Below, one piece after another: positions 15,379 through 28,400 of a DNA stretch of 32,000 bases. Under the pieces are notes generated by a model, which had not been told where the DNA came from, did no database searches, and worked only from the letters and a program-made list of their open reading frames with translations. The position numbers and the translations under genes are program-made. Each line of letters opens with the position of its first letter. Position 1 is the first letter of the stretch. Origin of the DNA: Geotalea uraniireducens Rf4 (lineage in GTDB: Bacteria; Desulfobacterota; Desulfuromonadia; Geobacterales; Geobacteraceae); NCBI RefSeq assembly GCF_000016745.1, contig NC_009483.1:3480001-3512000 (forward strand), written 5' to 3'.

Positions 15379-15776
15379 TCGCCGTCGACACGAACATCCT
15401 GGTGCGCTACGCGGTGAAGGACGACCGTAACCAGGCGGCGCTGGCAACCGATTTCCTCGCCAGGAACCGCTGTTTCGTCCTCAAGACCGTCCTCATCGAG
15501 CTAGCCTGGGTCCTCTCTTCGTCTGCCGGCTACAATCTCCCCCGGGAAAACGTTCATGAACGATTGCTCCACATTCTCGGCCTGCCGGACATTGAAACGG
15601 AAGATGCCGCCCACGTTGCCCAGGCTCTCACTTGGTACGCGGAAGGGATGGACTTCGCCGATGCCCTCCATCTCGCCGGCAGTGTGGAACTGGCAGGTCT
15701 TGCCACCTTTGACCGTAAATTTGTCGCAACTGCGGAAAAGCTCGACGCCGTTCCCTCGGTACTCCTCGTGCGATAA
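15375..15776 (+). CDS. vapC: PIN-domain ribonuclease toxin
   Basis: 133 aa. It begins MIAVDTNILVRY with the conserved first Asp, and further acidic landmarks are present (ELAWVL, DFADALH, TFDRKF). A 4-nt overlap with the upstream antitoxin gene is typical of vapBC. Confidence 0.9.
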   Translation: MIAVDTNILVRYAVKDDRNQAALATDFLARNRCFVLKTVLIELAWVLSSSAGYNLPRENVHERLLHILGLPDIETEDAAHVAQALTWYAEGMDFADALHLAGSVELAGLATFDRKFVATAEKLDAVPSVLLVR

Positions 15777-15827
15777 GCTCTTCCTTTTTCAATCCTTTCG
15801 AACCGAATTATTTTCTCTCACACTCGG
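15709..15827 (+). repeat. Direct repeat copy A: last 68 nt of vapC plus 51 nt downstream
   Basis: Hand alignment with 24277-24395 gives 119 nt with 8 mismatches and no gaps. Confidence 0.9.
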
Positions 15828-15882
15828 ATTCATTGCTCATTTCTCTCATGTAAAGGACTGACCCTTCTGTCTTTCTCTTGGC

Positions 15883-16887
15883 TTACTCAAGCCCAACATA
15901 TTCTATCTTTTCCAGGTTCTTAAATAAGTTACGCTTTGGGTCATATTCTAGGTTTCTTGTATAGTCTGGATTAAAGTAATATTTGAAAATAATCACAGCT
16001 GTATTTGGGCCTTTGGGATAGAATTTGATGTCTCCATGAATTTTGCCATACATGGCTCGAACTAATTTGCCATCCTTTTCCTCAGATCTAATCCTGAAAA
16101 TATAGTTATTATCGTCTTTAAAACTCTGCTTAACTGGTTCTGTTAGCGATAACTTTCTTGTTGCACTTATTGATTTATTATATCCATCTTCCGGAGCGTA
16201 TCTGGGAAGTTTGAATTCACTTCCAAATCTCCGATTATCCTTTATTAATTGTATTCCATCATATCTATTCGAAAACGTAATGGTTAACTCACTATCATAT
16301 TCATACTCTATTACATAAGTAGGGTGAAACTTGAAATTTTTGTTATTCAGCTTCAATATTAAATCAGAATGAAGACCTTTCCCATATGGCGCTACCCAGT
16401 CATATTCCATCAAATCAAAGCCGACACCAGATGTTATATCAGGTAATTTAATTTCCTTAGACATTTTAGAATCTCTTGCATACATCGGCACAGGGTTTTC
16501 GATTTTTCTCAATACTACATTAACAACTTGATCCCATGGTTGCCACTTGAGGCCCTCTGCCTTTCTAAATTGATATTCACCGTAATACTCGTAATAGCCA
16601 TTTTTGTTAATATGATAACTGACCCCACTCACTGTCTTATGCTTAACCCAACATGCTCCTTTAGCATCAGTCAGTACTCTCACAATATCTTCATTTGTTC
16701 CTTTATCTCTCATTACTGGCTGATCGAATCCAACGGAAATATCGGCCTTTTCAACTGGCGCCCCTTGTTCGTCAACTATATGAAATGATAATTTAGCTTC
16801 CGGTATTATAAAGGCCCACGTATGACTATATGAAATTGCAACGATGCTGATTACAGCAAACAGTGATAGGATTATATTCCTCATCAT
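15883..16887 (-). CDS. Exported protein of unknown function; member of the 4-copy family that follows the hydrolase tips (putative orphan immunity paralogue)
   Basis: The ORF track starts at TTG 16902. I prefer ATG 16887 because GAGGA lies 5 nt upstream (ggcGAGGAatcaaATG). The N-terminus MMRNIILSLFAVISIVAISYSHTWA is signal-like. The 3' ~660 nt are highly similar to 16930-17592. Conserved landmarks shared with 19668-20633 and 24505-25461 are R-K-[IK]-E-x-P, Y-[AV]-P-[EP]-x-G-Y and NP-x-x-x-RN[LV][ED][YF]D. Confidence 0.8.
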   Translation of the reverse strand: MMRNIILSLFAVISIVAISYSHTWAFIIPEAKLSFHIVDEQGAPVEKADISVGFDQPVMRDKGTNEDIVRVLTDAKGACWVKHKTVSGVSYHINKNGYYEYYGEYQFRKAEGLKWQPWDQVVNVVLRKIENPVPMYARDSKMSKEIKLPDITSGVGFDLMEYDWVAPYGKGLHSDLILKLNNKNFKFHPTYVIEYEYDSELTITFSNRYDGIQLIKDNRRFGSEFKLPRYAPEDGYNKSISATRKLSLTEPVKQSFKDDNNYIFRIRSEEKDGKLVRAMYGKIHGDIKFYPKGPNTAVIIFKYYFNPDYTRNLEYDPKRNLFKNLEKIEYVGLE

Positions 16888-16929
16888 TTGATTCCTCGCC
16901 AAGTTGGGAGAAACTGCGGTGTTCGTGAC

Positions 16930-17940
16930 TTACTCAAGCCCAACATATTCTATCTTTTCCAGATTCTTAAATAAGTTACGCTTTGGGTCATATTCCAGAT
17001 TTCTTGTATAGTCTGGATTAAGGTAGTATCTGAATATGATTACTGCCGTATTAAGCCCTTTTGGATTGAACTCAATCTCGCCTTGTATTTTCCCATACAT
17101 AGCCCTGATTAGCTTTCCATCTTTTTCCTCTGATCTGATTCTGAAAATATAATTGTTATCGTCCTTAAAACTCTGTTTAACTGGTTCTTTTAGCGATACT
17201 TTCCTTGTTGCACTCATTGATTTATTATATCCATCTTCCGGGGCATATCTGGGAAGTTTGAACTTGCTTCCAAATCTCCGACTATCCTTTATCAACTGTA
17301 TCCCATCGTATCTATTCGAAAACGTAATGGTCAGCTCACTATCATATTCATAGTCGATTACATAATTTGGGAGAAACTTAAAGTATTTATTGTTCAACTT
17401 GAATATTAAATCAGAATGAATACCTTTACCATACGGCGCTACCCAATCATATTCCATCAAATCAAAGCCGACACCTGATTTCACATCTGCTAAATCAGGT
17501 ATTTGCATTTTTTTAGACATTTTAGAGTCTCTGGCATACATCGGCACTGGATTTTCTATTTTTCTCAATACAACATTAATTATCTGATCCCAAGGTTGCC
17601 AACGATTTCCTTCAATTACTTTAAACTTATATTCACCATAACTTTCATAATAACCCTCTTTATTAGCTTCATATCCAATGTCACGTATTGTTCGGCCTGA
17701 AGCTGTAAATAACCCCTTGGCATCAGTTTCACCTTTAATGGATTCACTATCAATTCCTTGTTCGCCTTTTCTCGGCACTTGAAAGCCCATTTCTATTTTT
17801 ACATTTTTTACTGGCTCGCCTGTTTCATCAACTACACGCAGAGTAATCTTGGCATCAGGAATAGTAAACGCCCATAAACAGCCGCTTATTAGTGCCATCA
17901 TACTTATTGCGAACGATAACGAGATTAATTTTGCTTTCAT
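16930..17940 (-). CDS. Probable lipoprotein, tandem paralogue of 15883-16887 (putative orphan immunity paralogue)
   Basis: ATG at 17940 with GGGAGGA 8 nt upstream (the ORF track's TTG at 17943 is one codon earlier). The N-terminus MKAKLISLSFAISMMALISG/C contains a lipobox-like LISGC. The C-terminal ~215 aa are nearly identical to the neighbouring gene. Confidence 0.8.
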   Translation of the reverse strand: MKAKLISLSFAISMMALISGCLWAFTIPDAKITLRVVDETGEPVKNVKIEMGFQVPRKGEQGIDSESIKGETDAKGLFTASGRTIRDIGYEANKEGYYESYGEYKFKVIEGNRWQPWDQIINVVLRKIENPVPMYARDSKMSKKMQIPDLADVKSGVGFDLMEYDWVAPYGKGIHSDLIFKLNNKYFKFLPNYVIDYEYDSELTITFSNRYDGIQLIKDSRRFGSKFKLPRYAPEDGYNKSMSATRKVSLKEPVKQSFKDDNNYIFRIRSEEKDGKLIRAMYGKIQGEIEFNPKGLNTAVIIFRYYLNPDYTRNLEYDPKRNLFKNLEKIEYVGLE

Positions 17941-18216
17941 CAATTAAGTCCTCCCGAACTTGTAAATTGCTCGAATATTTTATAGATGTATAAGAATGCT
18001 ATTTTTTTGATATCATTGTGAAACCAGTTCTTTGGTGATTTTCTCTCGCTTGGCCACTTGTCCCCTAGCGTTTTGAATCTTGATTGCATGTCAAAATTGT
18101 TTTCAATATCAATACTTATTAGTTTGTTCTTCCCTGCCGCCAATGTCCTGGCAGGGAAAGCTTCCGCAAGCAGACGTGATCTGTTGTTACCGGCAAACTG
18201 ACTACCACCAGCTTCC

Positions 18217-18258
18217 GAAACAACCTTAAGGGGTCAACAAACAACCTTAAGGGGTCAA
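18217..18258. repeat. Tandem 2 x 21-nt REP-like unit ([G/C]AAACAACCTTAAGGGGTCAA)
   Basis: 18217-18237 and 18238-18258 differ only at the first base. The second copy overlaps the left inverted repeat of the RayT-like unit. The 13-mer CTTAAGGGGTCAA recurs at 24470-24482. Confidence 0.75.
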
Positions 18259-19290
18259 AGCTCCAAATATCAAATTTTCAGGATCGCTTTCACTTTCTCC
18301 ACCTCTGCACACAACTTTTTATCTTGAACCAACTTCCTCGAAAGTAGACGGCGCGCTTCTGCTATTGCGGTTTCACCTACGCCGAACAGATTGCCGATTT
18401 CACGTAGTTTCTTTCCGCTGTACTTATGGCAGAGATACATTCCCACCTGCCGCGCCTGCTTTTCTTTTTCCCCCACTACTGCCGCTACTGCCTTCAATAT
18501 CTCTTCCGGCTCCGGGTTTGACTTAAATTGCCGGATTCCTGGGACAGCTCTGTCTACACCTTTCTCCGAGAGATGTTCTGATGTCACCATTTCTATAAAT
18601 TCCGCCGTGCCGAGTACTGCTGCGCCAAATGTGTTCTGGAAGGGGCTGTCGTATTCCTTCCCAAGCAAGTCTTCCACAAATGTTCGATACTTCTTCATTG
18701 CTTCTTTTGTCTTTTTGCCGAAATAGTCGAGGATTGTCTCCATCTTCAGCCACGTGGGCGCGGTTCCTTGACCGATGTAGTTGTTGTAGCTGGACCAGCG
18801 GTATTCCTCTGGACGCGTAACCATTCCCGCCCTTACCGGGTTTAAATGTATATATCGTGATAGTTCCATCGCATATTCGTCTAATTCAACCAGTATCGCC
18901 TTGTATCGCCCCTGAAAAAGATGCCCTGACCTTTTCCGCTTGATGTTGAAATATGTCGTGTATGCTCCGTTTATGTGCCGCATGATCTGTGACAGATTGC
19001 CTACCGGCGTTTCCAGGAGCAGATGATAATGATTGCTCATCAGGCAATAGGCATGAACTACTCCCCCGTATCGCTCTGTTGCCGATTCCAGATACTCCAG
19101 AAACTTTTGTCGGTCTCTTTGGCTTTTGAATACGTCCTTTTGCTCGTTACCTCTTGATGTGACATGGTAAAATGCTCCTGGATATTCGATTCGTAGCGGT
19201 CGTGCCATGGCGTTCTCCTTTGACTGATAAGTTATTCCTTTATCATCGCAAAGTTTACCATGCTTTTTGATTTTTGGAGACTTGACCCTT
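18249..19290 (-). mobile_element. RayT-like (REPtron-like) unit 1: Y1 transposase gene bounded by imperfect inverted repeats
   Basis: The left end is AAGGGGTCAAAGCTCCAA (18249-18266) and the right end is TTGGAGACTTGACCCTT (19274-19290). About 15 of 18 positions are complementary. I saw no flanking target-site duplication. Total length is 1042 bp. Confidence 0.6.
18270..19208 (-). CDS. IS200/RayT-like Y1 (HUH) tyrosine transposase fused to a DnaA-C-terminal-like HTH
   Basis: Start taken at ATG 19208 with AAGGAG upstream. It is homologous from residue 1 to 23223-24173 (MARPLRIEYPGAFYHVTSRGNEQKDVF). The HUH motif is NHYHLLLE and the Tyr motif is RYIHLNPVRAG. The C-terminal YLCHKYSGKKLREIGNLFGVGETAIAEARRLL is DnaA-domain-IV-like. 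Confidence 0.85.
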   Translation of the reverse strand: MARPLRIEYPGAFYHVTSRGNEQKDVFKSQRDRQKFLEYLESATERYGGVVHAYCLMSNHYHLLLETPVGNLSQIMRHINGAYTTYFNIKRKRSGHLFQGRYKAILVELDEYAMELSRYIHLNPVRAGMVTRPEEYRWSSYNNYIGQGTAPTWLKMETILDYFGKKTKEAMKKYRTFVEDLLGKEYDSPFQNTFGAAVLGTAEFIEMVTSEHLSEKGVDRAVPGIRQFKSNPEPEEILKAVAAVVGEKEKQARQVGMYLCHKYSGKKLREIGNLFGVGETAIAEARRLLSRKLVQDKKLCAEVEKVKAILKI

Positions 19291-19302
19291 TTATTTTCTT
19301 TT

Positions 19303-19620
19303 ATTCGGGTCGAAACCTTCAGGCAGCGGTATGGAGATCTTGACCTCCTTCCGGACATTGATACCGCCGGTGTCCACATTCACTGCTCCGAGATACTTGC
19401 CTCTTGCCGGCACCGGATGTGGAAGTTCCGCCTCTGTAACCGGCGTAATCCTGATAACGGTAGGCCCGACCAGCGCACCTTCAGGGATTTCGAGGAGCAC
19501 ACCCCCGTCACCTTCCACCTTGCCCCCCTTGGCGGTGACAAGGTAGCTGTCGTCCGAACCCTTGAAGGTGGGGTACGAGATGGTGGTCTGGTTGCCGGAG
19601 TAGTCCAGCAGGACTACTGC
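19303..19620 (-). pseudogene. Relic internal fragment of a third giant-protein gene (ZU5-like segment)
   Basis: Encodes ...LLDYSGNQTTISYPTFKGSDDSYLVTAKGGKVEGDGGVLLEIPEGALVGPTVIRITPVTEAELPHPVPARGKYLGAVNVDTGGINVRKEVKISIPLPEGFDP. This parallels IMDNSGNQTLVSYLTFKSDDGNYLVTAKGGKVEGEGGSILDIPEGAL...LSMPLPDGFDP of the gene at about 30170-30490. Homology stops at both ends and no start or scaffold is present. Confidence 0.8.
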
Positions 19621-19667
19621 CAAAAAAATGAGTCAGTGAACAAATAAACAACGTCGCACCCCCTTCT

Positions 19668-20633
19668 CTATTGTGGCTTCGTCCCCATTCTTTCCGCTGA
19701 TGCATTTTTATTTGCTAGGTACGCCCTGTATTTATCACCATCGAAATCAAGATTCCTTTCACCCAAGGGGTTTGTCCATACTTCTGCTTTAAAAAATACC
19801 TCGCCATTTTGGTTGACAAATTTGATATCTAGATTTGAGTATATCCCACCACCCCTGCTCTTTATGTAGAGATAGGTTTTAAACATCTGACCATTGGTCA
19901 CCTTAACTTTATAAATATTTTTGTAACCGGTCTCTGGTGGCACATAGAGCATCTGGTCAAGAGCAATAATGCCGCTATCGGCATCAGGTGTTTCCAAGAT
20001 AAAGTTATAGGCATCTTCTGCGGAAATGTACTCTACTCGGGCCTTAAGGTCAGCATGTGCATTATCGCTGTGATACCTCTTAAGATAGTATGGTGCTCCA
20101 TCAACCATATCGACAAGATCAACCTCGTAGTATTTTACATCTTTTTTAAAAACTACAGATATGTCACCAGGGATGACAACCGTTGGGGGTTCTTTCTTGC
20201 GCATGGTGAATACTACAGGATTGTTTCTGTCAATAACTGTGCTGCCATCATTTTCATATTCATCATGACCTTTAGCTCGGTTAATCCTCAAATAGTCATA
20301 ACCAGAGGCAGTTATTTTATTAACCAACAGACCGCTTCCATTGATCGCGGAAACTTCAAAAATGCCTTGATTATCAGTTGACAACACAATTTCCTTTACA
20401 CCGACTGCTTGGATAATTTGGATAGAAACCTGTGCGCTAATTACGGGCAGATTGTTATTATCCAATACCTTTCCGTAGTATAAAATGGGTTTGTCAAGTG
20501 ATTTTAATACATTTGATATTGTAGTTTGTTTATCTATTTTACTTAGATCATCTGCAAAATTACACTTTGTAAAAACAGCCAGTCCTGCAACAAACACAAT
20601 AGTAACAATTAATATTTTATTTTTCACAATCAC
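19668..20633 (-). CDS. Signal/anchor-bearing protein immediately downstream of the orphan hydrolase tip (putative cognate immunity protein)
   Basis: 321 aa. The GTG at 20633 overlaps the AAGGGAG RBS, so GTG at 20627 (5-nt spacing) is an alternative start. The N-terminus is hydrophobic (KILIVTIVFVAGLAVFTKC), followed by a CarboxypepD_reg-like segment (ILYYGKVLDNNNLPVISAQVSIQI...TDNQGIFEVSAINGSGLLV). It is homologous along its whole length to 24505-25461. Confidence 0.8.
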   Translation of the reverse strand: MIVKNKILIVTIVFVAGLAVFTKCNFADDLSKIDKQTTISNVLKSLDKPILYYGKVLDNNNLPVISAQVSIQIIQAVGVKEIVLSTDNQGIFEVSAINGSGLLVNKITASGYDYLRINRAKGHDEYENDGSTVIDRNNPVVFTMRKKEPPTVVIPGDISVVFKKDVKYYEVDLVDMVDGAPYYLKRYHSDNAHADLKARVEYISAEDAYNFILETPDADSGIIALDQMLYVPPETGYKNIYKVKVTNGQMFKTYLYIKSRGGGIYSNLDIKFVNQNGEVFFKAEVWTNPLGERNLDFDGDKYRAYLANKNASAERMGTKPQ

Positions 20634-20640
20634 TCCCTTA

Positions 20641-23196
20641 TTAGTATGATGATGTCAATCTAAAATCTGACATGATTGCTTTCCAATAGCCTTTTTCTTG
20701 TATTATAGTTGATCTGAACTGTCTGCTATGAGAGTAATGCTTCGTATCGTAATCAAATAATACTTTAAGGTCTTTATTATTATCATTATAAAAATTATTG
20801 ATGGCAGAAGAAACTGCACCTATGGCTTTAGCTCGTGATTGTATAATTCTGCTGAATACTTCATATCTATCATCCGGCAGATATAATGGGAGAAGGCCAT
20901 TTAAGTGTATTGAACCAAGTGGAACGTAACTGTATGGAAAGTCAGGACGTGTCAAACTATTGAGTTCCCAAGCTGCATACCCCTCATCTCCTCTGCTCAA
21001 GGCAAAATCTAATCTATTAAAATAGTTAATGTGTTTTGCTTTTTGTGTACTTGAAGATAGGTATGGCTTATCTGAGGAGGTTTCGTTACCAGACATATAA
21101 TATCCAAAGATGTTAGCTGTAATAACAGTACCTGGAATCTTGGCTGCAAGGCTTTTCTCTGTTATCGTATTGTCATAATAATGCGCCGACAAGGCCGCCT
21201 GTGTAGCAATATAGGTATGGACTATTCCTGGCCCCGGCAATTTATTGATGGTTTCTCCTGATACGATACCACCCATACTATGACCGAGTAGCCGTATCTT
21301 GCCCTGATATTTCGTCATATCTCCGCTTAAGAGCAAATTTTTAAATGCTTCTGAGGAATTCCATGCCCTTATCTCACTTTCGTCGAAAGTAAGTGCACCT
21401 TCCAATGTCGGCCAACTAAACAAACCAACTTTTCCGGTATACCCTGACCACCAGAGCCGCTTGAACATAGTCTCGGCCCAACGCTCCTTCTCCACTTCTC
21501 CGTTCGTCATGTTCCAGCCATGAACATAGAAAATGTAGTCATTGTTTTTGGGCTGATAATCTCCCTTTCTGGTTGTGTAGGATGTCAACACTCTCTTGGC
21601 GAGATCATCATAAGCAACCTGATATTTGTCATAAAACCAAGTAATCGGTTTCAGGTCCAATTTTGCTGAATTTTCCTCAATGTCGACCCCATCCGATTTG
21701 AGACTAATAGTCAGATCACCTGTACCTGATGATTTACCTTCGAAAATGAAATGCGACGCCCCTGTACCCATCAGTACGTTAGCAGGTAAATCAGAGACAT
21801 TAACTGAATCAATCGTGACAATTCGTTTGTTATACAACTGTAGCAGGGCTGTCTTGTATTCACTTAGATATTTTGTACCATCTGTCACCGCCTCAAAAAG
21901 ATTTAGTGATGGATTTGTGCCATTAACGTTTTTGAATTGCAGTTGATATGAGAAAACCGGCGGCGGCGTATCGTGTGGCGCAGTAAGAAACTTGATGACA
22001 TTACGTGCATGTTCGTCTATCTGTATGTGAACTTGTGCAAAATCTTCCAAGTCGCGCAACGTATTAATTTGGTCAACTTCAGTGTCATTTGCGTCTGATG
22101 CACTTGAATATATATCATCATCAAAAAGACCAACTTCGGCATTTCTCACGTCTGGCCCGGTATCATGATCATCATTCACCCAGAAAGTATATTTCTTGTC
22201 TTCAGGATCATCGAATCTGATCTTCCCATCCCTATTTCCATCAAAGGCAATCCTGATCAGCTTCTCAAGCGGAATATTTTTGCGCCTCATCAACCTGCCG
22301 TCTTTGCGGTTGCTGAATTCAAAAATCGCCTTGGTCCCGATACTGCCAAAAACTGGCGCGATTGCCATCCCATCCACGGTGGTCAGTGTCAAATCGGCAG
22401 CCGGGAAGTTGGTGGCTATAAAGCGTTTGTTTGTCGGAGACGTTATTGTTTTTTTCAAGTCGGCATAGCAGTGCTCGTCACTTCCTTTGCGGAAAGACAG
22501 CAGATACTGCGTCGGGTGGTCTATACCGGGAAGAGGGTTGACAACAGCACCCTTGCGCGTTTTGATTACCATGCTACCTACCAGGTCGTCATCATTACAG
22601 TTGATATCCGGATCCTCGTACTTTACCTCGACGTAGTAGCGACGGTCATCCTCTCCGCCCTTACTGTATCCTATCTCGGGAACCTGAATATTGCTCTCAT
22701 TGTATACTCTTATGTCGTTGGTGTTAATACCCATTGTGCGCATACCTTTGGTCTGGTCCGCCATGTACAGCCAGCCGTCTTTTTCCGCCATGGCCGGGAT
22801 GGTGCCTATGGGAATCATCGCCGGGGATCCTTCCGGTGTTGTAGCGCCGGATGAGTTGGGCAGTTGGGTGATGGTGTTGATCAGCCGGGGATTTTTTGGG
22901 TCTTTCACATCCACTACCTGAATGGCGCTCAAGGTACTGACGATTGCCAGCCCCGTCTCTTTGTTCAAGGTTATATCGTAGGGATAGGAGACAACCTCTT
23001 TATCCAGGGCATCTTTGACCGTTGCCAGCGGTTGGGGGTTGTAGGGGTCGGTAAGGTCAACGGTCTTGAGTCGGCCGCCACCGCCGGTGAGGGCCAGGTC
23101 CATGCTCTGCGGGTTGCCGTCGGCATCGGCATAGCTGTAGTCGGACACACCCGCCACACGCAAGGCGTTCAGCTTTTTGGGCTCGATCACTCCCAT
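20641..23196 (-). CDS. 5'-truncated orphan copy of the 3' third of the giant gene at 25465-32000, ending in a diverged DUF900-like alpha/beta-hydrolase; possibly silent
   Basis: Homology to the full-length gene begins exactly at 23199 (QMGVIEPKKLNALRVAG...). The first in-frame ATG is at 23196, with no visible RBS. The 21 extra N-terminal residues in the ORF track (TTG 23259) are read from inside the transposase unit and overlap the transposase stop. Confidence 0.7.
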   Translation of the reverse strand: MGVIEPKKLNALRVAGVSDYSYADADGNPQSMDLALTGGGGRLKTVDLTDPYNPQPLATVKDALDKEVVSYPYDITLNKETGLAIVSTLSAIQVVDVKDPKNPRLINTITQLPNSSGATTPEGSPAMIPIGTIPAMAEKDGWLYMADQTKGMRTMGINTNDIRVYNESNIQVPEIGYSKGGEDDRRYYVEVKYEDPDINCNDDDLVGSMVIKTRKGAVVNPLPGIDHPTQYLLSFRKGSDEHCYADLKKTITSPTNKRFIATNFPAADLTLTTVDGMAIAPVFGSIGTKAIFEFSNRKDGRLMRRKNIPLEKLIRIAFDGNRDGKIRFDDPEDKKYTFWVNDDHDTGPDVRNAEVGLFDDDIYSSASDANDTEVDQINTLRDLEDFAQVHIQIDEHARNVIKFLTAPHDTPPPVFSYQLQFKNVNGTNPSLNLFEAVTDGTKYLSEYKTALLQLYNKRIVTIDSVNVSDLPANVLMGTGASHFIFEGKSSGTGDLTISLKSDGVDIEENSAKLDLKPITWFYDKYQVAYDDLAKRVLTSYTTRKGDYQPKNNDYIFYVHGWNMTNGEVEKERWAETMFKRLWWSGYTGKVGLFSWPTLEGALTFDESEIRAWNSSEAFKNLLLSGDMTKYQGKIRLLGHSMGGIVSGETINKLPGPGIVHTYIATQAALSAHYYDNTITEKSLAAKIPGTVITANIFGYYMSGNETSSDKPYLSSSTQKAKHINYFNRLDFALSRGDEGYAAWELNSLTRPDFPYSYVPLGSIHLNGLLPLYLPDDRYEVFSRIIQSRAKAIGAVSSAINNFYNDNNKDLKVLFDYDTKHYSHSRQFRSTIIQEKGYWKAIMSDFRLTSSY
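20644..21545 (-). other. Alpha/beta-hydrolase (DUF900-like) tip, orphan allele
   Basis: Landmarks are YVHGWNM, FSWPTLEG, FDESEIRAWNSSEA, GHSMGG (21268-21285), INYFNRLDFAL and KHYSHSRQFRS. Confidence 0.6.
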
Positions 23197-23199
23197 CTG
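22390..23199 (-). repeat. 810-bp block identical to 27361-28170 (recombination handle, orphan copy)
   Basis: Line-by-line comparison at a constant offset of 4971 nt found no mismatch. Identity ends abruptly at 23199/23200. On the other side it decays to roughly 80-85% over 22170-22389 and drops lower beyond that. Confidence 0.9.
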
Positions 23200-23210
23200 A
23201 GAAAAACTAG

Positions 23211-24252
23211 AGGGGTCAGGTCTCAACTTCTGACATACCCTAAATTTGCCTCTACCCAATCTACCATCTTCTTCACTTGTTGATCTTTCTCGGCCTTTAA
23301 TGCCAGCCTCCGGCTTGCCTGCGATACCGCCGCATCGCTTATTCCAAAACGTTCACCTATTTCCTTAAGCTTTGCTCCGCTATACTTCTGACAGCAATAA
23401 ATGCTCATATTTCTTATCAACTCGTCTCTTTCGCCGAGCACCGCATTGATTTCCTTTATGATTTCATCCATCGAAGGCCGGGTTGCCAGTTCCTTCACAG
23501 CCGGAACGCTCCGCTCTGCCCGTCTCTCTCCCAGATGCCTTTCCGATATTTCTCTTACAAATTCTTCACTTCCTAATACTGTCGAGGCTACCGTTGCTTT
23601 CAATGGGCTGTCGTATTCACTATCGAGAAGGTCTTCGACAAATTTCCGATACTTGTTTTTCACATCCGGTGCTTTCGTGCCAAAATAGCCGAGTATGAAT
23701 TCCGTCTTCAGCCAATCGGTCGCCTTGTTGTCTTGACCTATGTAACTTCGATAGCTGGACCACTGATATCCCTCCGGCTTAGCAACTATTCCCGCCCGTA
23801 CCGGATTCAGATGAATGTACCGTGAAAGCTCTGTCGCATATTCATCTGCTTCGACGAGTATCGCCTTGTATCGCCCCTGGAACAGATGACCGGCTCTCTT
23901 CCGCTTGACGTTGAAGTACGTTGTATATGCACCGTTTACATGCCGCATGATCTGCGAAAGGTTCCCGGATGGTGTTTCCAGCAGCAGGTGGTAATGGTTG
24001 CCCATCAGGCAGTAGGCATGGATTAACGCCCCGTACCGCTTTGTTGCCGATTCCAGATATTCCAGAAACTTTTCCCGATCCTTTTGACTCTTGAATACGT
24101 CCTTCTGTTCGTTTCCTCTCGACGTGACATGGTAAAATGCTCCAGGATATTCGATTCTTAAAGGCCGTGCCATCGCTTCCTCCTTTGATTGTTTTGGACT
24201 TTCTCAAACATATCAAAGAAGTTCTACCTGTCAAGAATTGAGACCTGACCCC
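23211..24252 (-). mobile_element. RayT-like (REPtron-like) unit 2: Y1 transposase gene bounded by perfect 16-bp inverted repeats
   Basis: AGGGGTCAGGTCTCAA (23211-23226) is the exact reverse complement of TTGAGACCTGACCCCT (24237-24252). Length is 1042 bp. I saw no target-site duplication. The left repeat overlaps the transposase stop codon. Confidence 0.7.
23223..24173 (-). CDS. IS200/RayT-like Y1 (HUH) tyrosine transposase fused to a DnaA-C-terminal-like HTH
   Basis: 316 aa, with ATG 24173 preceded by AAGGAGG. The HUH motif is NHYHLLLE and the Tyr motif is RYIHLNPVRAG. The C-terminal YCCQKYSGAKLKEIGERFGISDAAVSQASRRL is HTH-like. By eye it is roughly three-quarters identical to 18270-19208. 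Confidence 0.88.
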   Translation of the reverse strand: MARPLRIEYPGAFYHVTSRGNEQKDVFKSQKDREKFLEYLESATKRYGALIHAYCLMGNHYHLLLETPSGNLSQIMRHVNGAYTTYFNVKRKRAGHLFQGRYKAILVEADEYATELSRYIHLNPVRAGIVAKPEGYQWSSYRSYIGQDNKATDWLKTEFILGYFGTKAPDVKNKYRKFVEDLLDSEYDSPLKATVASTVLGSEEFVREISERHLGERRAERSVPAVKELATRPSMDEIIKEINAVLGERDELIRNMSIYCCQKYSGAKLKEIGERFGISDAAVSQASRRLALKAEKDQQVKKMVDWVEANLGYVRS

Positions 24253-24276
24253 TTTGGTTGCCCTCCTTTGGTTGCC

Positions 24277-24344
24277 CTTGACCGTAAATTTGCCGCAACC
24301 GCGGAAAAGCTCGACGCCGTTCCCTCGGTAATCCTCGTGCAATA
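24277..24344 (+). pseudogene. vapC 3'-terminal remnant (last ~22 codons only)
   Basis: Encodes ..DRKFAATAEKLDAVPSVILVQ*, compared with ..DRKFVATAEKLDAVPSVLLVR* for the intact vapC. No upstream PIN coding sequence is present. Confidence 0.85.
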
Positions 24345-24395
24345 AGCTCTTCCTTTTTCAATCCTTTCGAACTAAATCATTTTCTCTCGCACTCG
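24277..24395 (+). repeat. Direct repeat copy B of the vapC 3' end plus downstream sequence
   Basis: 111 of 119 nt are identical to 15709-15827, in the same orientation. The two copies bracket 8449 bp (15828-24276). Confidence 0.9.
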
Positions 24396-24456
24396 GCTGA
24401 GCGGATCGAGCTGGAAGTTAAACCGTTCAGAAATGCACTTAGAATGTGAATTCACC

Positions 24457-24504: not shown

Positions 24505-25461
24505 CTATTTCTTTATCGTTGAAAATGTTTCAGTTTCCGCGTTCTTTTTATCCAAATACTGGCCATATAATTCTCCATCATAATCAACATTCCTTTCGCC
24601 GTTCGGATTCGTCCAACCTTTGACGACCATGACAGCTTTTTCTTTCGTTGCCTTAAAAGTAGTATCCAGCCTTGAATAAATCTGACCAGCACGACCTTTA
24701 ATGTATAAATACTTCTTCACCTTGGTATTTATTGGGACTGTGATTTGGAAAGTTTTCTGATATCCGCTTGCAGGTGGCACGTACAACATCTCGTCAAGAG
24801 CAATAATGCCGCTGTTTGCATCCTGTTCTTCAACAGTGATGGTATACGAAGAATCCGCTTCGGAATAAACTGCCTTGGCCCTCAGATCGATATGTAAGTT
24901 TTTGCTTTCGTAATTTTCTAAATACCCTTTCTCTCTTCCATCAAGTTTTACAAGATCAATTTCGTAATAAGGAATATTTTTTGTGAATACAATTGAAAAT
25001 TCTTCATTTAATACCAATGTTGGCGGTTCCTTTTTGCGAACGGTGTAAGTTACGGGGCTATCTTTCTTTGCCACGAATGAGCCGTCATTTTCAAAAGATG
25101 TTTCAGCTGTATCTACTGATTTATCATATTCATAACCTCGATTTTTAATATCAACTATCAAAATAGAGTTACCTTTAATGTTGCTGACTTCGAATCTTCC
25201 ACCGCTATCTGTCTTAATACCAAATTCCGCTATGCCATTAGAACTTCTCACATGGACAATCACATCAATGCCTTCAACAGGCGTGTTGAGATGATCAACC
25301 ACCCTACCATAGAAAAGAATGGGCTTGTCCATGGAGAGCAGTTCAAGATCTGCTCTATTGGCTTTATCTGCTTCGGTTAAATTCTGCGCGTGATTGCACT
25401 TTGAAGTAACAACCAAGACGCCTATTGTTAACAACACTACGAGAGGAATCAGTTTATTCAT
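24505..25461 (-). CDS. Signal/anchor-bearing protein immediately downstream of the full-length hydrolase tip (putative cognate immunity protein)
   Basis: 318 aa. The ATG at 25461 lies 3 nt after the upstream stop, and its AAGGAG RBS sits inside the last codons of the upstream gene. The N-terminus is MNKLIPLVVLLTIGVLVVTSKC, followed by a CarboxypepD_reg-like segment (ILFYGRVVDHLNTPVEGIDVIVHV...TDSGGRFEVSNIKGNSILIV). Confidence 0.85.
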   Translation of the reverse strand: MNKLIPLVVLLTIGVLVVTSKCNHAQNLTEADKANRADLELLSMDKPILFYGRVVDHLNTPVEGIDVIVHVRSSNGIAEFGIKTDSGGRFEVSNIKGNSILIVDIKNRGYEYDKSVDTAETSFENDGSFVAKKDSPVTYTVRKKEPPTLVLNEEFSIVFTKNIPYYEIDLVKLDGREKGYLENYESKNLHIDLRAKAVYSEADSSYTITVEEQDANSGIIALDEMLYVPPASGYQKTFQITVPINTKVKKYLYIKGRAGQIYSRLDTTFKATKEKAVMVVKGWTNPNGERNVDYDGELYGQYLDKKNAETETFSTIKK

Positions 25462-25464
25462 TTG

Positions 25465-28400
25465 CTACTCCTTTTCTATTGAGCTTTTTAGTTCAAAATC
25501 ACTAAAGATTGCTTTCCAGTATCCCTGCTCGTCAACAATATTTGAACGAAACTCCTTACTGTGAGAATAATGTTTGTCGTCATAACCAAACTTTTTAAGG
25601 TTTCGGCTCTTTTCAAATCCCTTAAGTGGCGTTTTGCTCGTCGCCCCCAATGCCTTGACCCGAGACTGAATTATTCTGCTGAATATCTCATAACGGTCAG
25701 CGGGAAATTTAAGCAGACTTGGCATGCTTAATCCGTCGTTCGAAATCCCCAATCTCACATAATAGTTGCTTCCGCCATCGATTGAATTCAGCAACGAGCT
25801 TATTATGCCTGGAATTGTCGGAAGCGGATCAAGCAACGTAAAACAAGCTACTGCTAGTCCGTTGCAATACAGGTAACCAGGATCGGGTCTGAACTTGGTA
25901 TTGAATTCCCACGCCATGAAACCACGTTCTCCGGCTGTCAAAGCATAGTCCACTTCGTTAAAATAATTGATGAACTTTGCCTTGCCGGTTGAATCTGCCA
26001 AATAGGTGGCATCTTGTGAGCCACTATTGCCTGAGTAGTAGTACCCAAATACATTCGGAGTTACCGGCAACAGAGGCAGACGCCGGCTACTCTCCGTCAC
26101 ACTATTGTCGTAGAAATGTGACGAAAGCGCTGCCTGTGTGGGAATGTACGTTTTAACGATGCCGGGACCCGACAGCTTCTGAATGGCCTCACCTGAAACT
26201 ATTCCTCCCATGCTATGCCCAAGCAACCTGATGTTTCCAGCATAATCCCTGAGCTTTATTTCAAGTACATCTTTTAGTGCTTCAGAAGAATTCCATGCCC
26301 TCAATTCGCTTCTGTCAAAGGTAGTACCTCTTGGAATGTCATAAGGTTTTTCAAGGGTAGGCCAACTGAACGATCCTACACGCCCTGTATACCCCTGCCA
26401 CCAAAGCCGTTTATAGATTGTTTCGGCCCACCGATCTTTCTCGATTTCACCTTGCATGTTCCAGCCGTGAACGAACAGGAGGTAATCTTTGTCTTTCGCT
26501 GGATATTCGCTTTTTTTGATCTCGCTGACCTGCGATCCGACTGTTTTGCTTCCCTCGTCATATGTGACCCTGAATTTGTCATAGAATGTCTGAATTGGCT
26601 TTAACTCCAGAAGCGCTGAATTTTCTTCTAAAGTATCGCCATCCGCCTTGAGGATAAAGGTGAGTTCTCCTTTGCCAAAGTTTCGCCCTTCAAAAATATA
26701 CGGCGACGTTTTATCCGTCGATATATAGGAGGGGGCGAGTTCTGATTCAGTAGATGAGATAGTAAGAAGCTTTGGTTTATCCAACTGCTTTCGTGCAGAA
26801 TTTTCATTCCACAAATATTTTTCAGTTTCACCAACAGCCTGGAAAATATTTATCTCAGGGGATGTACCGTTGGTATTATTGAACTTGAGATAATAACCGA
26901 AGCTCTTAGGTTGTGTCGTCTGATTTGATAATATCTCCATTACCTTCCTTGCGTGAGGATGAAGTTGCATTTGGACACGGGCAAAATCTTCAAGATCTCT
27001 CAGCGTTTTTATCTTGTCACCGTTTTCACGAACACAATCCTTAACTGTTCCGCTAATATTATCATCTTCTACTGGATAAGTAATTTTTGAGCCTTGGTTG
27101 ATGTCAGTATATTCGGTTTCATAACCATTGACATCATTATCATCATTCACCCAGAAGGTGTATTTCCTGTCCTCGGGGTTTTTAAAATCAATCACCCCAT
27201 CCCTATTTCCATCAAAGGCAATCCTGATCAGCTTCTCAAGCGGTATACTCTTGCGCCTCATGAGTCTCCCCTCTTTGCGACTGCTGAACTCGAATATCGC
27301 CTTTGTACCGATACTGCCGAAGACTGGCGCTATCGTCATCCCGTCTGGTGTGGTCAATTTCAAATCGGCAGCCGGGAAGTTGGTGGCTATAAAGCGTTTG
27401 TTTGTCGGAGACGTTATTGTTTTTTTCAAGTCGGCATAGCAGTGCTCGTCACTTCCTTTGCGGAAAGACAGCAGATACTGCGTCGGGTGGTCTATACCGG
27501 GAAGAGGGTTGACAACAGCACCCTTGCGCGTTTTGATTACCATGCTACCTACCAGGTCGTCATCATTACAGTTGATATCCGGATCCTCGTACTTTACCTC
27601 GACGTAGTAGCGACGGTCATCCTCTCCGCCCTTACTGTATCCTATCTCGGGAACCTGAATATTGCTCTCATTGTATACTCTTATGTCGTTGGTGTTAATA
27701 CCCATTGTGCGCATACCTTTGGTCTGGTCCGCCATGTACAGCCAGCCGTCTTTTTCCGCCATGGCCGGGATGGTGCCTATGGGAATCATCGCCGGGGATC
27801 CTTCCGGTGTTGTAGCGCCGGATGAGTTGGGCAGTTGGGTGATGGTGTTGATCAGCCGGGGATTTTTTGGGTCTTTCACATCCACTACCTGAATGGCGCT
27901 CAAGGTACTGACGATTGCCAGCCCCGTCTCTTTGTTCAAGGTTATATCGTAGGGATAGGAGACAACCTCTTTATCCAGGGCATCTTTGACCGTTGCCAGC
28001 GGTTGGGGGTTGTAGGGGTCGGTAAGGTCAACGGTCTTGAGTCGGCCGCCACCGCCGGTGAGGGCCAGGTCCATGCTCTGCGGGTTGCCGTCGGCATCGG
28101 CATAGCTGTAGTCGGACACACCCGCCACACGCAAGGCGTTCAGCTTTTTGGGCTCGATCACTCCCATCTGGACCGGCGTGGGGTTGTTGATATCCAGGGT
28201 TATCAGATAACCAGCGGTGGTGGTGAGGAGAGCCTTACCCGTTCCGTAGACCGCAATGTCGTTGGGCGAACCGTATCCCTGGCCGATACTGTCGAAGACA
28301 CCCACAATACTTGGGTTGTCTGCCGAGAAGCCGTCATAGCTGTCCTTGGCCTTACTGATGCTGACCACCTGCAGCGCCGCCGCAGCCGTGGCAATGTAGG

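Follow-up and report, generated by a model that had tools for sequence, protein, structure and literature searches.

Within a 32-kb window, that is, the whole stretch of 32,000 nucleotides analyzed here, which is part of the finished chromosome of Geotalea uraniireducens Rf4 (5.14 Mb; 5,136,364 bp), a giant gene and a 5′-truncated orphan gene located downstream of it share a perfectly identical 810-bp block. On balance, we favor the interpretation of this region as a polymorphic-effector locus that includes an orphan cassette with a recently recombined handle. A giant scaffold protein would carry an exchangeable tip, with a partner gene directly behind it, and a spare cassette consisting of a second tip and a second partner would lie downstream, having lost its scaffold but kept the last 810 bp of the scaffold and linker coding sequence. 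The main/orphan handle concept is known from bacterial toxin genes; the protein family involved here is new.

The shared block and its divergence strata

The two genes and the segments they share are as follows.
25465–31998, minus strand: main gene, encoding a Big_5/LVIVD scaffold, the handle and tip1; 5′ end beyond the window
27361–28170, minus strand: handle in the main gene, exactly identical to 22390–23199
27133–27360, minus strand: intermediate zone in the main gene, 80.7% identical to 22162–22389
20641–23196, minus strand: orphan gene (851 aa, Gura_3019), encoding the handle, the intermediate zone and tip2, with the catalytic Ser/Asp/His kept
22390–23199, minus strand: handle at the 5′ end of the orphan, beginning CAG ATG with an in-frame ATG at 23196; pS = 0 over 269 codons
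22162–22389, minus strand: intermediate zone in the orphan, delimited by BLASTN, pS and the breakpoint fit

An earlier note on this DNA had claimed a base-for-base match between the two handle copies, and direct comparison bears this out: all 810 of 810 bases are identical at a constant offset of 4971 nt (3 × 1657), and the exact run extends to 811 nt once the also-matching position 22389 is included. An exact repeat of this length cannot have arisen by chance. At the 5′ edge, identity stops at 23199/23200 as abruptly as the note had it, with mismatches at every position from 23200 to 23203. On the 3′ side, where a fall to 80–85% over about 220 nt and then to protein-level similarity had been proposed, we measured 80.7% over 228 nt followed by 56% nucleotide and 54% amino acid identity; BLASTN joins the handle and the intermediate zone into one ungapped match (22162–23199 against 27133–28170; 95.8%, 44 mismatches). 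Fitting three segments by maximum likelihood to the codon alignment placed the breakpoints at 22390/22389 and 22162/22161, with mismatch fractions of 0.000 (810 nt), 0.193 (228 nt) and 0.439 (1491 nt), that is, in three strata rather than evenly spread; the likelihood gain of the second breakpoint was reached in 0 of 200 permutations.

Synonymous divergence follows the same steps: pS is 0 in the 269 codons of the handle, 0.56 in the adjoining 76 codons and 0.86, that is, saturated, in the last 497 codons. The tips and partners are compositionally foreign relative to the scaffold: GC3 declines from 0.73–0.80 in the scaffold to 0.66 in the handle, then to 0.55–0.59 and to 0.37–0.44 in the tips, the values for the partner genes being 0.35–0.37 and those for the more distant partner-family genes lipoA and lipoB 0.33. 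Together with the identity of only 42% between the two partners, the pS values and the GC3 steps support the proposal of recent gene conversion or recombination over an old duplication. A single old tandem duplication was rejected given the incompatible ages of its parts (93% for the repeat of the vapC tail, 100% for the handle, saturation for the tips).

The handle corresponds to amino acids 1278–1546 of the main protein (2177-codon numbering) and encodes the final blades of the LVIVD beta-propeller and a lineage-specific linker of about 106 aa; the alignment of scaffold homologs ends at about aa 1440–1473. The 3′ cliff lies 4–45 residues ahead of a C-terminal module that combines an NRDG/FWVNDD beta-sandwich with a GHSMGG alpha/beta hydrolase, and the intermediate zone encodes the start of this mobile module through the NRDG...FWVNDDxD motif, motif included, the columns of which are invariant in A1. 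The 5′ cliff coincides with the end of an inverted-repeat unit that contains a gene for a RayT, a REP-associated tyrosine transposase (RayT2), 1–5 nt away. Scanning metagenomes for sequences closely related to the handle yielded two loci only, neither of them with a recombinant arrangement.

The gene that had been called full-length does carry the handle but is incomplete in the window: its reading frame continues up to base 31998, the window end, so that its length is at least 2177 codons. The Big_5, LVIVD and DUF900 matches in the main protein all exceed the Pfam gathering scores, and its homologs carry Sec-type signal peptides. The product is probably a giant Sec-exported surface protein with a scaffold of Ig-like domains and an LVIVD propeller. 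Scaffold homologs with 49–59% identity end in DUF900-type tips, in PGAP1/DUF676/LCAT-type tips, or lack a tip. Searches of a database of 5.8 billion proteins gave no exact match for the main protein, though every neighbor is present there; the gene may be annotated as a pseudogene, in which case switching in Rf4 would be moot.

It is highly improbable that the repeat is an assembly artefact, be it a collapsed or mis-joined repeat or a deleted chromosome accompanied by a free 4971-bp circle. Short-read graphs do not link the flanks across 810 identical bases, and the chromosome-plus-circle resolution would have an identical k-mer graph. However, the sequence belongs to a finished chromosome, the orphan, both partners, RayT2 and VapC match Rf4 proteins exactly, and three Logan contigs agree with the window at 100% identity. 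Of the four unique flanks of the handle, three (the RayT2, tip1 and tip2 sides) are recovered at 100% in contigs from independent sequencing runs. One of these contigs (L002, SRR9436595) spans 24371–23170 and terminates exactly 30 nt into the repeat; the other two, both from SRR9436596 (L001, 27225–24343, and L030, 22254–18277), terminate 30 nt into a 48-nt exact run common to both copies (22225–22272). With k = 31 for the Logan graphs, the contigs break k−1 nt into the shared runs, as such a graph does at a true branch, which argues against an artefact and implies at least two contexts of the handle in the reads.

Tip modules and partner genes

Four genes in the window belong to the partner family.
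24505–25461, minus strand: partner1 (318 aa, ABQ27193), with an N-terminal hydrophobic helix and two beta-sandwich domains in the structure model
19668–20633, minus strand: partner2 (321 aa, Gura_3018), 42.5% identical to partner1
16930–17943, minus strand: lipoA, a distant family member that shares motifs with the partners
15883–16902, minus strand: lipoB, likewise distant and sharing these motifs

The two tips belong to one enzyme family, with 54% identity and the Ser/Asp/His triad intact in both; S368, D456 and H585 are also kept in 16–18 of 18–20 homologs. Tip1 consists of a beta-sandwich and a DUF900-type alpha/beta hydrolase with the GHSMGG motif. Against the DUF900 gathering threshold of 20.5 bits (PF05990), the main tip scores 24.2 and the orphan tip 18.5 bits. 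The tip sequence has no match in PDB at E ≤ 1, and Foldseek matches of the AF2 tip model (pLDDT 78, pTM 0.82) are lipases and esterases. The tip is most likely a lipase or esterase effector, and a switch from one tip to the other would alter specificity or immunity pairing, not the class of activity. A secreted DUF900-family protein of Haloferax, Cinquedea, is a bactericidal phospholipase (bioRxiv 10.64898/2026.06.10.730825). The likeness to it is at the level of the Pfam family, both proteins being DUF900 alpha/beta hydrolases, but Cinquedea is a stand-alone archaeal protein encoded by a single-gene unit, without a partner gene or cassette structure.

Searches with the N-terminal part of the module retrieved 1077 representatives of protein clusters (50% identity) at E ≤ 1e-3 and 459 at E ≤ 1e-10. 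In nearly all of the proteins listed (240–4008 aa), homology begins at about aa 1591 of the main protein; in the full-length ones, the module constitutes the C-terminal 550–600 aa, and it is found on many unrelated N-termini. Judging from this distribution, the module of about 590 aa appears to be an exchangeable C-terminal cassette.

Of the 19 genome loci found, 18 have a partner-type gene, either of the partner1/2 or of the lipoA/B type, just behind the tip homolog; in the remaining one (L004), the contig ends within the tip. The type tracks the tip subclass, with lipoA/B homologs following more distant tip homologs in 11 loci; homologs of partner1 are found behind tip homologs in other phyla, and partner genes occur in tandem, with up to three copies per array. 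A fold search with the partner model produced only generic beta-sandwich, pilin and teneurin matches and no link to known immunity proteins. Most likely, the partner is a membrane-anchored cognate inhibitor or immunity protein of the tip; a chaperone or anchoring role is possible. LipoA and lipoB, which are 70% identical to each other, lack an intact cognate tip in the window and hence are orphan partner genes.

The same layout, main gene, partner, orphan, partner, recurs in a metagenome-assembled genome of Blastochloris. The handle there comprises 173 nt at 99% identity, with sharp edges on both sides and an offset of 3039 nt (3 × 1013); the tips are 38% and the partners 34% identical, and RayT is not present at the locus. 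The P0002 and P0018 contexts contained no further orphan.

RayT units, gene debris and the origin of the orphan

Two RayT units and several gene remnants lie between and around the cassettes.
23205–24259, minus strand: RayT2 unit, with 31-nt inverted repeats at 23205–23235 and 24229–24259
23223–24173, minus strand: RayT2 coding sequence (316 aa), HUH/Y1 with a DnaA_C-like HTH
18239–19301, minus strand: RayT1 unit, with the coding sequence at 18270–19211 and 36-nt inverted repeats at 18239–18274 and 19266–19301
24275–24396, plus strand: remnant of a vapC 3′ end with a 51-nt tail, 93% identical to 15706–15827
19291–19623, minus strand: fragment of a second scaffold gene, with homology to aa ~509–612 of the main protein (72% nucleotide identity, GC3 0.67)
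17946–18227, minus strand: remnant of a third tip (tip3) of the lipoA-type subclass, the last ~90 codons, detected by tblastx to the tip 3′ ends of three other loci (L010, L014 and L018) and by aligned translations

RayT2 resembles the transposases of RayT/REPtron systems in that it passes the NCBIfam equivalog cut-off (REP_Tyr_transpos, NF047646; 85.1 bits against 80; Pfam Y1_Tnp, E = 1e-14), contains the HUH (HYH) and Tyr motifs, and is flanked by inverted repeats that share the core GGGGTCArGyCTC; inverted repeats of 31–36 nt flank both RayT genes, and GGGGTCA cores recur behind gene ends. The differences are an additional C-terminal DnaA_C-like HTH in RayT2, flanking repeats without stable hairpin folding, and the location of the units at broken ends of coding genes and not in the usual intergenic REP arrays. 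A REP-hairpin nature of the flanks was rejected, their folding energies being no better than those of shuffled sequences, and an Rfam scan of the whole window gave no matches. RayT1 sits exactly between two truncated genes: the scaffold fragment terminates at its left inverted repeat, and the tip3 remnant adjoins its right repeat on the 5′ side and ends in a stop just ahead of lipoA. The tip3 remnant and the two orphan partner genes are signs of repeated cassette turnover, and two RayT units that exactly abut broken effector genes hint at a possible role of domesticated Y1 transposases in shaping such loci.

An origin driven by RayT, which we regard as unlikely, would have the RayT2 unit, the vapC remnant, partner1, tip1 and the handle form a 4971-bp translocatable circle or segment that integrated by homologous recombination at the handle, the identity being the footprint of a very recent insertion and the RayT units creating and moving orphan cassettes. 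Campbell-type integration of a handle-bearing circle predicts exactly two handle copies flanking the insert, and the handle begins 1–5 nt past the right repeat of RayT2, with RayT1 similarly placed between the scaffold fragment and the tip3 remnant. Furthermore, three copies of the same left repeat are present on a contig from a relative (L032), where one RayT copy is interrupted at aa 104 by a second one, and L022 has a RayT homolog 2 kb downstream of the scaffold homolog. However, RayT1 and RayT2 are old paralogs (63% amino acid identity, pS 0.71) rather than recent transposition copies, the Blastochloris locus has the handle and the orphan without RayT, the flanking repeats show no REP-hairpin folding, and Y1 transposases move single-stranded DNA elements with defined ends, none of which bracket the 4971-bp unit. 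A CAGAT microhomology or RayT target site suspected at the junction of RayT2 and the handle was rejected, since the matching bases lie outside the repeated unit in L032. Slightly more doubtful still is a broader scenario in which the NRDG/FWVNDD–DUF900 module and the beta-sandwich partner would constitute a large unrecognized family of Sec-dependent polymorphic lipase effector/immunity cassettes in at least six phyla, and the Geotalea RayT units would cut scaffold–tip genes into orphans, mobilize the 4971-bp tip1 cassette via the handle, and supply a promoter and stop/start coupling for the orphan and its immunity gene.

We find it very hard to credit that the orphan is simply translated on its own, from the TTG at the RayT2 stop and from a promoter-like site in the RayT2 left repeat, with the handle merely being part of the product. 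GenBank annotates an 861-aa version that starts at TTG 23226–23224, overlapping the RayT2 stop TGA 23225–23223 (TTGA), a promoter-like −35/−10 site is present at 24234–24207, the RayT2 left repeat contains a promoter-like TTGACA, and no terminator-like site was detected between RayT2 and the orphan. Nevertheless, consensus promoter matches are not enriched over shuffles, the product would begin within the beta-propeller without an export signal, and the zero divergence of the handle would be left unexplained. A literature search for Gura_3018 to Gura_3022 found no paper.

The orphan could alternatively be a decaying pseudogene, a 5′-truncated relic of a second tandem full-length paralog in which the handle became identical through incidental gene conversion, without functional or selected switching. 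The debris at the locus (the scaffold fragment and the tip3 and vapC remnants), the lack of a Shine-Dalgarno sequence ahead of ATG 23196, and the missing main protein in the database fit this scenario, but we consider it improbable given that the orphan frame is intact over 851 codons with the full catalytic triad, that partner2 is intact, and that the layout of an intact orphan with a handle recurs in another phylum. The 810-bp perfect direct repeat is a recombination substrate regardless of its history.

Predicted tip switching and known systems

Under the favored interpretation of a recently recombined handle, the handle copies would be identical because they recombined very recently, either through gene conversion from the main gene or in an event that placed the 4971-bp tip1 cassette ahead of the old tip. 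The cassettes themselves would be old, compositionally foreign alleles. The 5′ identity edge, at the end of the RayT2 unit, would then be the plain end of homology, and the 3′ edge a crossover or conversion end-point where the alleles had already diverged by about 20%. As 810-bp direct repeats, the handles are a substrate for RecA-dependent crossing-over. Deletion would yield an in-frame scaffold–tip2 gene, and unequal sister exchange a duplication that retains both tips. The in-frame geometry suggested by the earlier note is present: the 4971-nt offset divides evenly by 3, and the orphan can be read without interruption from the block to its stop codon, so that a crossover would give scaffold, block and tip2. 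The content of the 4971-bp deletion is also as proposed, namely, tip1, partner1 (24505–25461), the vapC remnant (24275–24396) and RayT2 (23223–24173). A plain deletion would thus also remove the presumed immunity gene partner1, which would explain why Salmonella recombinants arise after duplication.

The precedent invoked for such switching holds: the rhs-main/rhs-CT-orphan pair (STM0291/STM0292) of Salmonella Typhimurium LT2 shares 522 bp at 95% identity and has been shown experimentally to recombine (PMC3967940). In both systems, the main gene is followed by an immunity gene, a role that is presumed in Geotalea, and then by a 5′-truncated orphan tip with its own immunity gene, and the orphan retains a stretch of main-gene coding sequence, which in Salmonella mediates recombination to a chimeric full-length gene (PMC3967940). 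The handle in Geotalea is longer and identical (810 bp at 100%), the two tips are alleles of one hydrolase family, and a RayT unit borders the orphan. In Salmonella, the scaffold is an Rhs protein with YD repeats that a T6SS delivers, whereas Pfam shows only Big_5, LVIVD and DUF900 in the Geotalea protein, an Ig-like/LVIVD propeller scaffold without RHS/YD repeats or the PxxxxDPxGL demarcation motif. Recombination is experimental there and inferred here.

The CdiA-CT/CdiI orphan modules (Poole et al. 2011, PMC3150448) are similar to the Geotalea locus to this extent: the C-terminal domain is polymorphic, a cognate protein is encoded downstream of it, and displaced orphan pairs follow the main gene. 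Unlike in CdiA, Pfam and NCBIfam show neither two-partner-secretion nor haemagglutinin-type domains in the main protein, a VENN motif is lacking, a CdiB-like ORF is absent from the window, and the demarcation is the NRDG...FWVNDDxD motif; unlike CdiI, the partner is a membrane-anchored protein of about 320 aa rather than a small cytoplasmic one. The Geotalea proteins also resemble the Tle/Tli pairs of T6SS in having a GxSxG alpha/beta hydrolase (GHSMGG), a neighboring partner whose N-terminus bears an export or anchor signal, and partner paralogs in tandem. Russell et al. (2013) reportedly described Tle phospholipase effectors together with periplasmic Tli immunity proteins. However, the 32-kb window contains neither T6SS genes (VgrG, Hcp, PAAR or others) nor secretion or delivery genes of the TPS or T7SS types; in Geotalea, a giant protein with homologs that have Sec-type signal peptides carries the hydrolase as its C-terminal domain, and the Pfam family of the hydrolase is DUF900 rather than any of the Tle families.

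For the Geotalea proteins, we infer both the toxin/immunity function and the secretion route. Should the tips prove to be antibacterial lipases and the partners immunity proteins, the Rhs/CDI handle principle would extend to a widespread cassette family (more than 1000 clusters at 50% identity) that is represented in Desulfuromonadota, Verrucomicrobiota, Kiritimatiellota, Lentisphaerota and Alphaproteobacteria, environmental groups in which interbacterial weapons are poorly charted. Rf4 would then offer a cultivable subsurface metal-reducer for direct measurement of tip switching; an 810-bp perfect repeat should yield detectable recombinants in any culture.

The identical block and its edges

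Two genes of this locus end in C-terminal lipase-like modules (tips), namely, the giant scaffold gene with tip1 (hereafter, main gene) and the orphan Gura_3019 with tip2, and the two share a block that we denote the handle. Direct comparison of 22390-23199 (orphan) with 27361-28170 (main gene) shows that 810 of 810 positions are equal, the two copies lying 4971 nt (3 x 1657) apart throughout; the exact run extends to 811 nt when position 22389, which also matches, is counted, and there is a mismatch at each of the positions 23200-23203. BLASTN of the window against itself widens the match to 22162-23199/27133-28170, with 44 mismatches and no gaps. A three-segment maximum-likelihood fit to the codon-guided alignment places the breakpoints at 22390/22389 and 22162/22161, with mismatch fractions of 0, 0.193 and 0.439, and the likelihood gain from the second breakpoint was reached in 0 of 200 permutations. 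The description of this block in an earlier note, perfect identity ending in a cliff, is thus accurate in every detail; the mismatches are stratified rather than evenly spread, and the cliff stands. Both edges can be read simply: homology runs out on the 5' side at RayT2, one of two REP-associated tyrosine transposase (RayT) units, and the 3' cliff is the end-point of a crossover or conversion between alleles already about 20% apart there. The intermediate zone (27133-27360 in the main gene, 22162-22389 in the orphan) stops exactly after the invariant FWVNDDxD motif, and its lower divergence may be due in part to constraint and in part to an older exchange.

The orphan (Gura_3019/ABQ27191), the partner genes directly 3' of the main gene (partner1, ABQ27193) and of the orphan (partner2, Gura_3018), RayT2 (ABQ27192), vapC (ABQ27185) and the giant 4761-aa neighbor (ABQ27183) exactly match proteins of Geotalea (Geobacter) uraniireducens Rf4, all six encoded on one finished chromosome of 5,136,364 bp. 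Three independent Logan contigs are 100% identical to the window, and their ends are informative. L002 (SRR9436595, 24371..23170) stops exactly 30 nt inside the handle, and both L001 (27225..24343) and L030 (22254..18277), from SRR9436596, stop 30 nt into a shared 48-nt exact run, 22225-22272, common to the two 81% zones. Given the k-mer length of the Logan graph, which we take to be 31, contigs that end k-1 nt into a shared stretch mark a true graph branch, so that independent reads place the handle in two or more contexts. The repeat is therefore real, with the order of the flanks resting on the finished assembly, as short reads cannot join flanks over 810 bp.

Gene layout and age of the segments

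The features are listed in their order along the minus strand.

Features of the locus
beyond the window end to 25465, minus: main gene, frame open over 2177 codons; Big_5, LVIVD, C-terminal DUF900
25461-24505, minus: partner1, directly after the main gene
24396-24275: vapC 3'-end and tail remnant, 122 nt, 93% identical to 15706-15827
24173-23223, minus: coding sequence of the RayT2 unit; 31-nt inverted repeats at 24259-24229 and 23235-23205
1-5 nt past the RayT2 right repeat to 20641, minus: orphan; identity from CAG ATG, in-frame ATG at 23196
20633-19668, minus: partner2, after the orphan
19623-19291, minus: fragment of a further scaffold gene, 330 nt, approximately main aa 509-612, ending at the RayT1 left repeat
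19301-18239, minus: RayT1 unit
18227-17946, minus: third-tip remnant, last ~90 codons, frame intact; aligns to the tip C-termini of the outside contigs L010, L014 and L018
15883-17943, minus: lipoA and lipoB, distant partner-family genes, after the third-tip remnant
end of the series, plus: intact, convergent vapC, together with the 4761-aa gene

The third-tip remnant has the right repeat of RayT1 on one side and lipoA on the other, so that RayT1 lies inside a destroyed scaffold-tip3 gene. Protein-database searches yielded no exact match for the main protein, though all its neighbors are present there. The main gene starts beyond the window and may be a pseudogene in Rf4. Homologs of its ORF (25465-31998 and beyond) contain 650-900 aa more upstream and a signal peptide. 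No delivery genes were found within the 32-kb window.

The segments differ sharply in divergence and composition.

Divergence and GC3 by segment
Scaffold: GC3 0.73-0.80
Handle: 269 codons, pS 0, GC3 0.66
Intermediate zones: 76 codons, pS 0.56, dN 0.10, GC3 0.55-0.59
Tips: 497 codons, pS 0.86 (saturated), GC3 0.37-0.44
Partners: pS 0.72, 42% amino acid identity, GC3 0.35-0.37
lipoA and lipoB: GC3 0.33

These strata indicate that the cassettes, foreign in composition, are old, that the handle is native, scaffold-type sequence, and that its identity is recent and cannot stem from protein-level constraint. The proposal that recent recombination or gene conversion, not an old duplication, made the two handle copies identical is supported by pS of 0 within it vs 0.56 and 0.86 beyond. 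Origin of the locus by one tandem duplication is ruled out because the vapC-tail repeat (15706-15827/24275-24396, 122 nt, 93%) and the handle (100%) are interleaved direct repeats of unequal age, the vapC-tail being the older.

Several minor features accompany this layout. The TTG start of the 861-aa orphan in GenBank overlaps the RayT2 stop codon (TTGA, 23223-23226), a promoter-like TTGACA/TATGTT lies within the RayT2 left repeat (24234-24207), and no terminator-like site was found between RayT2 and the orphan. Elements with a GGGGTCA core (601, 18230, 18251, 19275, 23212, 24246 and 24475) are located just past gene ends or flank RayT genes; folded one by one, they are no better than shuffled sequence. 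Within the 4761-aa gene, at 852-3397 (minus), three direct repeats of ~500 nt with 84-98% identity (852-1342, 1962-2452 and 2910-3397) encode GYLGGWQG... units, another recombination-prone feature.

Predicted recombination and its parallels

RecA acts efficiently on direct repeats this long and this similar. As read from the sequence, any crossover within the handle yields an intact scaffold-handle-tip2 reading frame and removes tip1, partner1, the vapC remnant and RayT2, which confirms the geometry of the in-frame fusion by deletion that had been proposed. For the suggested likeness to activation of Rhs orphans, Salmonella LT2 is the precedent: a 522-bp handle with 95% identity there yields rhs-main/orphan chimeras, for which passage selects and which arise after duplication, so that the immunity gene of rhs-main is not lost (PMC3967940). 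By analogy, the handle would mediate formation of such chimeras, and thus tip switching, at the Geotalea locus. Overall, the observation is real, and the evidence supports its original interpretation; that an orphan cassette can carry a recombination handle was already known, and what is new here is the protein family, a handle perfect over 810 bp, and the boundary formed by RayT.

The same main/orphan arrangement, in the order main gene (1083 aa), partner, orphan (587 aa), partner, recurs independently in L007, a contig of a Blastochloris MAG. Its handle (9866-10038/12905-13077; 173 nt, 99% identity, offset 3039 = 3 x 1013) has sharp edges on both sides and ends at a DANRDGVI motif, and the tips and partners are 38% and 34% identical, respectively. 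This contig lacks RayT, which is therefore not required for the main/orphan layout. The element AATGGGGTCAGTCTAC follows both partner genes of L007, and an 89-nt tandem repeat occupies 15857-16034.

RayT units adjoin broken effector genes twice in the window, and an active role of RayT in making or moving cassettes is possible, though not likely. RayT1 and RayT2 are old paralogs, and their flanking repeats do not fold as REP hairpins. L032 (1363-1982), from a metagenome relative, contains three copies of the RayT2-type left repeat (AACCTTGAGGGGTCAGGTCTCAACTCTTGACAG); the RayT units are nested there, one copy breaking off at aa 104 where a second one begins, which suggests present or past mobility of the unit. 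At 16300-18970 in L022, downstream of a 5245-aa gene, lie five GGGGGTCAAATCTTAA elements arranged as inverted pairs and a RayT homolog (40% identity).

The tip and partner families

The orphan and main proteins are homologous to their ends (66% identity overall, 54% past the handle). The serine of GHSMGG, the aspartate and the histidine are all present in both tips, and 16-18 of 18-20 homologs conserve them. An AF2 model of tip1 (pLDDT 78, pTM 0.82) consists of N-terminal beta-sandwiches, similar to the PAD3 N-domain, and an alpha/beta-hydrolase core resembling lipases and esterases. The partners combine an N-terminal hydrophobic helix with two beta-sandwich domains; a fold search with a partner was uninformative. 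We infer that both tips act as lipases against bacteria, with the partners as putative immunity proteins; a bactericidal phospholipase of the DUF900 family is a functional precedent (bioRxiv 10.64898/2026.06.10.730825).

For the N-terminal part of the module (main aa ~1591-1873), matches number 1077 at E<=1e-3 and 459 at E<=1e-10, counted as representatives of 50%-identity clusters; in nearly all of them, homology begins at one and the same residue (IAFDGNRDG). In full-length proteins, the module lies within the last ~550-600 aa; the matching proteins are 240-4008 aa long. Genome loci with a tip homolog came from Verrucomicrobiota, Kiritimatiellia, Victivallis, Blastochloris, Desulfuromonadales and Desulfobulbaceae; in 18 of the 19, a partner1/2-type or lipoA/B-type gene comes after the tip homolog (contig L004 ends inside the tip). 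Partner type varies with tip subclass, and as many as three partner genes stand in tandem. Homologs of lipoA/B follow tip homologs in 11 loci of other phyla, also in up to three tandem copies. The motifs YGxVVD, APExGY and NPxGxRNLEYDP are common to the partners and lipoA/B, which together make up one superfamily. In the window, lipoA and lipoB (70% identical) lack an intact cognate tip and, together with the third-tip remnant, are debris of earlier turnover.

Scaffold homologs with 49-59% identity are of three kinds: some stop past the propeller, some bear different alpha/beta-hydrolase tips (PGAP1/DUF676/LCAT-type), and some extend into further domains; several possess Sec-type signal peptides. 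On comparative grounds, the scaffold/tip/partner layout is that of a polymorphic effector family.

Outside the window, contig L022 (160-15897) encodes the 5245-aa protein with the scaffold as an internal segment (56% identity to main aa 3-1473). In L028 (2213-2362), from a relative, a partner1 allele (83%) is followed ~560 nt later by a scaffold-like piece from approximately main aa 492, mirroring the adjacency of partner2 and the scaffold fragment in the window. L024 (9788-10834) contains a lone partner-family gene (39% identity) without a tip, in a defense-island-like context with a BrxC/PglY-like gene, an SNF2 helicase and an integrase.
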